From Escherichia phage vB_EcoM_E9.1: 64,000 bases of DNA. Position 1 is the stretch's first letter, and each line of letters begins with the position of its first letter. Shown piece after piece: positions 45,326-46,063 of the stretch. The notes beneath the pieces are model-generated. The model ran no database searches. It saw nothing but the letters and a program-made list of their open reading frames with translations, and was not told where the DNA came from. Where the stretch lies: sequence record PP886230. One strand, 5' to 3'. The position numbers and the translations under genes were made by a program.

Positions 45326-46063
45326 TTAGACTGAATTGTTAGGATAATATCTCCCACGTCCCCATATTATTCGCACAGCACCACCACCAGCAGCCGTATA
45401 AGAAAAATTATCCCATATACTACCACCACCACCATACATCTTACCAGCACCACCACTACCAGCACCACCATTATATGAACCATCGTATCTACCGCCAATA
45501 CCATTAGCACCTTGAACAATGATACCAGTACCACCACCCGTACCAATGAACGAGGTATTATAGAATGCACCACCACCACCGCCGCCGCCAGCACCATTTT
45601 CACCAGTGATTGCATCTCCGTTACCACCTTTACCAGTGTAGCCACCAGCACCACCACCAATGACTGCACCACCACTTACACCAGCGTTGCCCCCATTACC
45701 ACCACCATCATTAATAGCGTTAGCAGCTTTCCCACCTAGTCCACCAACCCTATATTCACCAGTGAAGCTAACACATAGTTTTTCAGTTCCACGATATAAA
45801 CCGTTTTCAACTGCTGTAGTAGTGTTGGGATGTGTAAGAGAAACACTTAAGTACTCACCACCAGAAACCGGAATATTATTACGCCACGATAAGCCGCCAC
45901 CAGCACCACGTTGACCACCCGGCGAAATAACACATACTGATATTTCGGTAACGCCAGCAGGAACTGTAAATTGTGTTGTTCCTATTGTCGTGATTAATTG
46001 TTCACCATGTGGCTTATATTCAATTTTATTCCCGTACTTAACCATTCTTCCAAAAGGTAACAT
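45326..46063 (-). CDS. glycine-rich protein with array leader, array member 8
   Basis: ~245 aa from MLPFGRMVKYGNKIEYKP; long GG.GG.G low-complexity tracts (GGNGGNAGVSGGAVIGGGAGGYTGKGGNG..GAGGGGGGGAF); no RCC1 motifs. Confidence 0.7.
   Translation of the reverse strand: MLPFGRMVKYGNKIEYKPHGEQLITTIGTTQFTVPAGVTEISVCVISPGGQRGAGGGLSWRNNIPVSGGEYLSVSLTHPNTTTAVENGLYRGTEKLCVSFTGEYRVGGLGGKAANAINDGGGNGGNAGVSGGAVIGGGAGGYTGKGGNGDAITGENGAGGGGGGGAFYNTSFIGTGGGTGIIVQGANGIGGRYDGSYNGGAGSGGAGKMYGGGGSIWDNFSYTAAGGGAVRIIWGRGRYYPNNSV

Follow-up and report, generated by a model that had tools for sequence, protein, structure and literature searches.

The 64,000-nucleotide stretch of Escherichia phage vB_EcoM_E9.1 analysed here (sequence record PP886230, hereafter the window) contains, on the minus strand and starting at position 46063, a gene for a glycine-rich protein which opens with the same short N-terminal peptide, or leader, as a series of neighbouring genes for RCC1-like propellers. 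The interpretation which appears moderately probable is that this gene encodes a late-expressed virion protein of two modules, an addressing or docking leader and an exchangeable adhesin-like head, carried on the outside of the particle. The first module would be a 12-residue peptide, M-L-P-F-x-R-[MLI]-x-x-Y-G-N, with a short linker behind it and common to otherwise unrelated proteins of Rak2-like jumbo phages; by docking at one common site of the assembling particle, it would carry any cargo placed behind it into the virion. The second module (approximately residues 20-245) would be a compact TNF-like beta-sandwich with a polyglycine-II-type lattice. Proteins tagged in this way would act as exchangeable adhesin-like heads on the particle exterior, most plausibly on the hair-like fibres of phages phAPEC6 and CBB, with small globules at their tips, and would be swapped by homologous recombination between the repeated cassettes of terminator, promoter, Shine-Dalgarno sequence and leader which flank every gene of the array. 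The parts of this proposal differ in strength: that the tag itself mediates incorporation is judged probable, while the placement of the tagged proteins at external fibre tips is about evenly balanced.

The open reading frame (ORF) encodes 245 residues plus stop (24.0 kDa, isoelectric point (pI) 9.0), of which residues 1-12 are MLPFGRMVKYGN; glycine accounts for 29% of the protein and for 38% of residues 100-245. Judged from the sequence, translation begins at the ATG at 46063 and not at the upstream ATG at 46081, because a Shine-Dalgarno sequence precedes the former and because all paralogues and cross-genus homologues begin with MLPF. The N-terminus conforms to the leader pattern M-[LI]-P-F-x-x-[MLIV]-x-x-[YF]-[GA]-N at residue 1, behind that Shine-Dalgarno sequence. 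At the nucleotide level, the leader DNA ATGTTACCTTTTGsAAGAATG is matched 12 times in the window, always on the minus strand and between 41594 and 54576, against 0 matches expected from shuffled sequences, and the glycine-rich gene is the eighth of these 12 array genes in transcription order. Ten of the others are intact RCC1-like propellers recognised by the Pfam RCC1/WD40_RLD models, which score 1e-13 to 2.5e-23 in the array neighbours; none of these repeats was detected by Pfam in the glycine-rich protein. These results bear out a preliminary description of the stretch, which regarded the gene as an eighth member of the family that keeps the leader and the upstream control element and has a body devoid of RCC1 repeats. 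The genome is that of an Asteriusvirus (121Q/PBECO4-like) jumbo coliphage, and a megablast search with positions 44000-48600 matched SP27, PBECO4, 121Q, UB, phAPEC6, JP4 and others at 83-98% identity; the glycine-rich gene itself is confined to roughly half of the Asteriusvirus records. Its annotation is uneven, as the phAPEC6 record (MK817115) lists just a 100-residue ORF, gp004 (7716-8018), inside the region matching the gene (7325-8056), and the CMSTMSU record splits the gene and labels one part after a Mycobacterium tuberculosis protein.

The same leader was recovered on unrelated proteins of other phages. A tblastn search with the glycine-rich protein found gp144 of Pectobacterium phage CBB, a glycine-rich homologue starting with MLPFSPLIVYGN and located in a different context, between nrdD and nrdG. 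In CBB the leader also precedes Kelch propellers (CBB_550, 552, 554), Laminin_G_3/ConA-like proteins (CBB_548, 551) and structural proteins with no Pfam assignment (CBB_247, 536, 537, 549, 553), and in phage GAP32 it precedes GAP32_001 (RCC1) and GAP32_002 (a weak Laminin_G_3 match). Scans of the IMG/VR database with degenerate DNA patterns located leader-initiated genes in only nine genomes of 348-378 kb, namely 121Q, CBB, GAP32, Serratia phage BF, Yersinia phage fHe-Yen9-04 and four uncultivated viral genomes (355-371 kb), and added further Laminin_G_3 proteins as well as a fusion of RCC1-like and Kelch propellers (contig L009, 6416-8416; similar ORFs of 673-676 residues in L033 and L049). 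Matches in other IMG/VR contigs were set aside as chance, lying inside ORFs and having no Shine-Dalgarno sequence. For the exhaustive search, the eleven window leaders were condensed into a 30-position profile, which HMMER compared with 1.84 billion representative proteins; since it was built from window sequences only, this profile is biased towards RCC1 cargos. It returned 53 matches at E<=1e-3, approximately 49 of them genuine, and all of the latter begin at residue 1, or at residue 6-7 in entries annotated from an upstream ATG, in protein clusters less than 50% identical to each other. A 40-residue profile applied to a word-indexed set of 5.8 billion proteins gave 11 candidates and returned four truncated ORFs. 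Across 62 distinct leaders the consensus is M-L-P-F-[PAGS]-[RIQ]-[MLI]-x-x-Y-G-N. The leader is therefore strongly supported as a modular, strictly N-terminal unit found on at least five unrelated cargo classes, with RCC1, Kelch, fusion, Laminin_G_3, glycine-rich and unassigned bodies all behind it. The earlier suggestion that it is a portable element rather than the start of a propeller thus holds, and the search for it on unrelated proteins of other phages, proposed as a check, was answered by the nine jumbo-phage genomes, in which it is always N-terminal. A reading of the leader as a Sec, Tat or lipoprotein signal was rejected, the 12 residues having no hydrophobic core, twin arginine or lipobox.

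Published proteomics places tagged proteins in virions. Mass spectrometry of CBB particles detected 55 of 554 predicted proteins, including nine of the 11 leader genes (CBB_144, 247, 536, 537, 548, 549, 551, 552 and 553; hypergeometric P = 2e-8; the coordinates of the leader genes were checked against the CBB supplement). Among them is CBB_144, the glycine-rich homologue with leader, represented by five peptides and 34% coverage. The CBB authors considered the detected proteins with no corresponding gene in GAP32 as candidates for the tail whiskers, appendages of 119 nm tipped with 'tiny terminal globular structures'; all six of the detected CBB proteins absent from GAP32 carry the leader. In phAPEC6, whose hairs are described on both tail and capsid, eight proteins of the RCC1 array (gp003, 005, 006, 007, 009, 010, 549 and 551) are among the 62 of 551 proteins detected, which corresponds to eight of the eleven RCC1-like proteins counted in that paper (P = 2e-6), and GAP32_001 was likewise detected by mass spectrometry. 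The association of tagged proteins with particles in CBB and phAPEC6 agrees with the virion incorporation which the preliminary description had suggested for the leader. Six of the eight phAPEC6 proteins are listed as 'DNA condensation protein' and two as hypothetical; a DNA condensation function was rejected as unsupported for the RCC1 proteins, since this widespread annotation, also in the form 'regulator of chromosome condensation', appears to have been transferred from the name of the repeat family only, and since the proteins are near-neutral and nothing in their composition suggests DNA binding.

Behind the leader, the body of the protein belongs to a conserved family. A phmmer search gave 179 homologues at E<=1e-3, sharing the motifs W.VP.GVTSI, GGGLSWRNNIPVTPGE, INDGGGNGG, GGGAGGYxGNGGNG and GAVRIIWGxGRxFP, and the protein matches the unnamed PHROGs family phrog_4474 (E 6e-68). 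Neither the protein nor its family profile found a match in sequence searches of Pfam, NCBIfam and the PDB; the gathering threshold of PF21722 (Gly_rich_2) is not reached, and the protein has no Pfam match at E<=1. PF21722 is matched by 17 of the 60 aligned sequences (the window protein and 59 homologues; best E 3.8e-13), and proteins bearing this domain are significant phmmer matches of the window protein, which on sequence grounds is a divergent relative of PF21722 and not a scoring member. The alignment-based AlphaFold model, used throughout (the model made with no alignment has a predicted local distance difference test score (pLDDT) of 37), reaches a pLDDT of 93.6 and a predicted template modelling score of 0.90; by region, pLDDT is 49 for residues 1-10, 72 for residues 11-20 and above 90 beyond approximately residue 20. 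The predicted structure is a TNF-like beta-sandwich bearing stacked glycine-rich strands of the polyglycine-II type, in which the domain is preceded by the 12 leader residues and approximately seven linker residues, with no N-terminal attachment helix predicted. The nearest solved structures are all external tail parts. Of the preliminary characterisation as glycine-rich and of low complexity, only the first half stands: the protein is rich in glycine, while the homologues, the conserved motifs and the predicted fold speak against low complexity.

The fold predicted for the cargo is that of the tail-fibre tip gp24 of cyanophage Pam3 (7ypx), and a related fold is found in gp33 of Bxb1, the 'tail wing brush', and in the ligand-binding domain of ALK. 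Pam3 gp24 combines a helical anchor, a TNF-like domain and a lattice of 39% glycine into a receptor-binding tip and resembles S16 gp38 and ALK (PMC9608196). Sequence identity of Pam3 gp24, S16/T2-type gp38 and Bxb1 gp33 to the glycine-rich protein is 17-23%. Whereas gp24 attaches by a long alpha-helical bundle and gp38 by three helices, the glycine-rich protein would attach by its 12-residue peptide and linker; moreover, Pam3 has a chaperone gene, gp25, and none is evident beside the glycine-rich gene. The PF21722 proteins of phages, bacteria and giant viruses, most of which have no MLPF leader, and the glycine-rich domain of ALK/LTK are likewise among the nearest known systems. As modelled, the cargo would therefore be a known kind of receptor-binding-type module deprived of its usual attachment domain, and the glycine-rich domain adds a new, divergent representative to an established type of domain; binding of a receptor at the distal end of a fibre may be its role, going by the predicted structure.

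The case for the particle exterior extends to the other cargos. Propellers, ConA-like domains and the fibre-tip fold are typical binding modules, and for this reason the tagged proteins are read as adhesin-like heads. Cargo pI ranges from 4.7 to 9.0 with approximately 6% lysine plus arginine, and for the RCC1 paralogues of the window (41690-54576) pI is 5.1-8.2, again with approximately 6% of these residues. In the unrelated Listeria phage LIS04 and Clostridium phage phiCD211, RCC1-like domains also occur amid genes for baseplate and tail fibres. Taken together, the kinds of cargo, their near-neutral pI and the presence of RCC1-like domains among tail genes elsewhere point to an external location.

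The strongest competing explanation, which is considered unlikely, takes the leader for a capsid targeting sequence (CTS) of the T4 type, which would bind the scaffolding core of the prohead, so that the cargos would be packed in the head, delivered with the DNA and act inside the host. Rak2-like phages, distant relatives of T4, possess a gp21-like prohead protease, their inner body is visible, and the array is hypervariable, as is the internal protein (IP) locus of T-even phages. T4 CTSs are N-terminal propeptides of 10-19 residues, sufficient for packaging and present on unrelated, poorly conserved internal proteins (PMC9026906), and the leader is likewise a short N-terminal peptide common to unrelated cargos. 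At positions 7-9, nine of the 62 distinct leaders read [LIM]-x-E, which is similar to the cleavage logo of gp21. However, none of the 11 window leaders contains Glu, position 9 being K, N or R, and an L/I-x-E prohead-protease site is thus missing from the leader end; across the clade, position 9 is variable (K, E, Q, N, V, D), and therefore there is no conserved protease site. If the leader remains uncleaved, an N-terminal peptide such as MLPFSPLIVYGNK is what would be seen. In addition, the cargos are beta-propellers, lectin-like jelly rolls and a fibre-tip fold of 24-43 kDa, near-neutral and not basic, and the external nature of the solved structures closest to the glycine-rich body speaks against packing in the head. 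The inner-body role which the phAPEC6 authors proposed for the RCC1 proteins counts in favour of this alternative and against the exterior placement.

Other points also weigh against a virion protein with an external head. GAP32 has leader proteins and is not reported to be hairy, and the structure of the cargo is a prediction. The ratio of non-synonymous to synonymous substitution rates (dN/dS) among close orthologues is 0.4-0.7; calculated from few substitutions and leaving out the frameshifted CMSTMSU record, it says little either way. The evidence from virions comes from homologues and paralogues only: with gp004 in place of the 245-residue ORF in the annotation, the phAPEC6 proteomics could not report the glycine-rich protein, and CBB_144 is only approximately 34% identical to it, over the alignable N-terminal part.

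The DNA around the leader is itself conserved. Upstream of the glycine-rich gene, the hairpin AGCCAGTACTTTGTACTGGCT and a T-run at 46128-46108 form the terminator of the preceding gene, and are followed by a promoter-like element, TTAAATATAGTATAATG, at 46095-46079 and by the Shine-Dalgarno sequence AAGGAGG at 46074-46068, 4 nt ahead of the ATG. A near-identical cassette, with AAGGAGG 4-6 nt before the ATG, lies ahead of eight array genes including this one, and a more divergent version precedes the first array gene (start 54576). Between -70 and +36, this gene and the RCC1 genes share 85-91% identity in the cassette, as against an average of 86% among the RCC1 cassettes themselves. The TAAATA core of TTAAATATAGTATAATG resembles the ATAAATA motif which the CBB and GAP32 authors predicted ahead of structural genes and likened to the late promoter of T4; a sigma-70 promoter scan did not pick up the array cassette, which has no -35 element. 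The TAAATA element may act as a late promoter, and the late timing of expression is inferred from it.

A further explanation, regarded as improbable, assigns no function to the leader as a peptide and holds that it is merely carried along by a homogenised cassette or constrained as a translation-initiation region. Codons 1-7 (46043-46063 in the glycine-rich gene) are invariant at every synonymous site (TTA, CCT, TTT, AGA) among the eleven window paralogues, for which the joint probability under the codon usage of the bodies is approximately 5e-16, the paralogue bodies being saturated with change. Gly11 is encoded only by the rare GGG or GGA and never by GGT, the preferred codon that makes up 63% of glycine codons in the bodies, a bias which points to gene conversion or a constraint at the RNA level acting on top of peptide selection. 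The conserved tract runs unbroken from the upstream hairpin and cassette into the ORF, and this continuity, together with the invariance of codons 1-7, indicates a homogenised DNA unit. Concerted evolution is seen in a metagenome contig as well (L022, k119_118597), where a 57%-identical glycine-rich homologue (113-856) is embedded between RCC1 genes and shares the variant leader MIPFARIVKYGN with the adjacent RCC1 gene (867-1988); the leaders of one genome would thus evolve in concert, as if fitting one partner or co-converted.

Against this explanation, between genera the codons vary freely (CCA/CCT/CCG/CCC, TTT/TTC, TTA/CTT/TTG, AGA/AGG/CGT) and the upstream sequences differ, whereas the residues M-L-P-F and Y-G/A-N are fixed. 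The array genes starting at 42856 and 50936 have no hairpin or promoter cassette and still retain the leader; they directly follow the upstream stop codon (TAGGAGGGAATATG), which overlaps the Shine-Dalgarno sequence at 42857-42864 and 50937-50944, and judged from this arrangement appear to be translationally coupled pairs within the array. In CBB, the leader genes are spread over three loci whose upstream DNA is unrelated. Free codon variation, retention of the leader in the absence of the cassette and the three CBB loci indicate that the peptide itself is under selection, and the strict position of the motif at residue 1 in the approximately 49 divergent clusters is equally at odds with a leader devoid of function. 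Both peptide selection and DNA-level homogenisation therefore act on the leader, as far as the sequences allow it to be judged, and part of its near-perfect identity in the window is due to homogenisation and not to peptide selection alone. A last reading, held to be very improbable, makes the leader a structural part of each cargo (e.g. a propeller-closing strand), inherited by the glycine-rich protein through a fusion accident, with the glycine-rich gene itself perhaps decaying or non-functional: most window carriers are indeed RCC1 propellers and dN/dS is not low, but the leader stands on at least five unrelated folds, its residues 1-10 are unpacked in the AlphaFold model (pLDDT 49, against above 95 for the body), the leader-bearing glycine-rich family is kept at 34% to 99% identity across Asteriusvirus, CBB and metagenomes, CBB_144 is present in virions, and homologous cargos of other phages fold, by homology, with a different N-terminus. 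The comparisons across genera and cargos thus leave little room for a purely nucleic-acid explanation or for one in which the leader belongs to the fold.

With the leader as a tag, the exchange of the heads can be followed by comparison with PBECO4. The two genomes are collinear at 85% identity up to 45318, in the terminator hairpin after the glycine-rich stop, and again at 98% identity from 46027, at leader codon 12/13; between these points PBECO4 carries in slot 8 a different cargo, of the RCC1 type, behind the leader MLPFGRMMNYGN. From these breakpoints, the replaceable unit is exactly the cargo, bounded by the leader end on one side and by the terminator on the other. The repeats flanking it are approximately 100 nt long and 85-96% identical, and would supply the homology for cargo exchange. 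In the PBECO4 record, the slot-8 RCC1 gene (1358-2537) is frameshifted after 59 codons.

Homologues of the cargos are also found in Vequintavirinae-like phages of approximately 145-150 kb, where they carry another N-terminus. The glycine-rich body is represented there by gp18 of PVP-SE1 and by two neighbouring copies in a phage contig derived from Plesiomonas, and the Laminin_G_3-like body of GAP32_002/LDIDF by gp0096 of PBES 02 and by gp182 and gp170 of 4MG; PBES 02 gp0096 and 4MG gp182 are annotated as 'virion structural protein'. These proteins start with M-x-E-[MLA]-[MLI]-[LIMV] (MFEMMLA, MNEMMIV, MLELMVC, MIELLAI, MNEMLML, MEEMLLV, MLEAMLT) and not with MLPF. On the available sequences, the N-terminal peptide follows the lineage of the phage and not the cargo, and M-x-E-[MLA]-[MLI]-[LIMV] is a candidate second leader system. 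A bolder version of the proposal, put forward only tentatively, is that MLPF..YGN is a self-sufficient 12-residue plug for one conserved socket on the hair fibres, through which each phage would show a mixture of up to 13 rapidly exchangeable lectin-like heads (propellers, ConA-like domains and polyglycine-II tips), with M-x-E-M-L-L as a second, unrelated plug for the homologous heads of the Vequintavirinae. On this bolder version, the parts which make 'hairy' phages hairy would be named, and large phages would be seen to possess a general, previously unrecognised route for diversifying their surface binding without touching the tail fibres.

Precedents exist for the single components of such a system. 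The CTS of T4 has the sequence MKTYQEFIAE, to which the MLPF leader shows no sequence similarity, and a conserved gp21-type L/I-x-E site is absent from the leader. Nevertheless, the CTS of IPI, IPII, IPIII and Alt is likewise a short peptide at the extreme N-terminus (10-19 residues), with unrelated bodies and a variable locus (Mullaney and Black 1996; PMC9026906). By analogy, the MLPF leader is proposed to determine incorporation into the particle, as the T4 CTS does. The cargos of T4 are small basic proteins or enzymes inside the head, whereas those of the MLPF leader are lectin-like or fibre-tip folds. As for the exchange of cargos, Arbiol and colleagues reportedly described in 2010 promoter-stem-loop cassettes (PeSLs) which mediate modular gene shuffling in T4-type phages. 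PeSLs, like the window repeats, are repeated units of stem-loop and promoter between genes of hyperplastic regions, with replacements bounded by the repeats; the window repeat differs in that it extends into the ORF and includes the translated leader, and its promoter-like element is of the late (TAAATA) and not the early type. Furthermore, the window array consists of one functional family, while PeSL regions contain miscellaneous small ORFs. The N-terminal tail of the adenovirus fibre (conserved FNPVYPY-type motif) attaches fibre trimers, whose knobs vary, to the penton base. It too is a short conserved N-terminal peptide anchoring heads of variable specificity to one invariant capsid site; virus, sequence and architecture are unrelated, and the comparison would hold only as an analogy of mechanism. 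The 12-residue tag may be seen as a variant of N-terminal virion-targeting peptides. No description of it was found in the searchable literature, including the papers on CBB, phAPEC6, fEgEco12 and Sharanji and two reviews on jumbo phages (closed-access papers, e.g. that on GAP32, being outside this scope), and the same searchable literature gave no description of the parallel Vequintavirinae tag.

The coordinates of the features are collected in Table 1.

Table 1. Features of the glycine-rich gene and its surroundings in the window, and genes with the candidate M-x-E leader in other phages
Feature	Record	Coordinates	Strand	Remarks
Coding sequence of the glycine-rich protein	Window	45326..46063	-	ORF list and translation; stop codon 45326-45328
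Leader, codons 1-12, MLPFGRMVKYGN	Window	46028..46063	-	12 copies in the window, 0 expected
Cargo domain, approximately residues 20-245	Window	45329..46006	-	Predicted TNF-like beta-sandwich with glycine-rich (polyglycine-II type) lattice
Tandem array of 12 leader-bearing genes	Window	40462..54609	-	10 intact RCC1-like, 1 glycine-rich, the last a split RCC1 gene
Upstream cassette of the glycine-rich gene	Window	46064..46130	-	Hairpin, T-run, promoter-like element, Shine-Dalgarno sequence
Intrinsic-terminator-like hairpin 3' of the glycine-rich gene	Window	45298..45320	-	Terminator scan
M-x-E leader gene, gp18	PVP-SE1 (L002)	4998-5840		
M-x-E leader gene	PBES 02 (L023)	5995-6645		
M-x-E leader genes	4MG (L024)	5953-6603, 10936-11589		
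M-x-E leader genes, three adjacent	Contig L020	8134-8799, 9176-10000, 10001-10744		Just upstream of terminase, portal and capsid genes

The hairpin 3' of the glycine-rich gene doubles as the first element of the cassette of the next gene and as the other edge of the exchangeable segment. The last member of the array (40462-41614, minus strand) is split into a 74-residue ORF (41614-41390) with the degenerate leader MLPFGRIITSSKK and a 298-residue RCC1-like ORF (41358-40462), and is either a frameshifted or decaying copy or the product of a sequencing error. Elsewhere in the window, a lone minus-strand gene of 384 residues (7401-8555), with no leader and a faint Ig-like Pfam hint, lies amid small plus-strand ORFs, and the hairpin GCCACTACATTGTAGTGGC which follows it (7374-7392) resembles the array terminator.

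For annotation, the glycine-rich ORF, missed or mis-called in some genomes, should be regarded as a folded domain of the receptor-binding type and not as a PE-PGRS-like low-complexity protein. For specialists, the breadth of the cargos and the link to the hairs, so far unexplained, are the surprising points, and the hypothesis is directly testable. If it is true, it would explain the recurring 'DNA condensation' RCC1 proteins in virion proteomes, suggest the identity of the whisker-associated proteins of CBB and phAPEC6, and account for the strong variability of the array locus between near-identical phages. Phage engineers would also gain in the leader a 12-residue handle by which foreign domains could be mounted on, or packed into, virions of very large size, much as with the T4 CTS or Hoc/Soc display.

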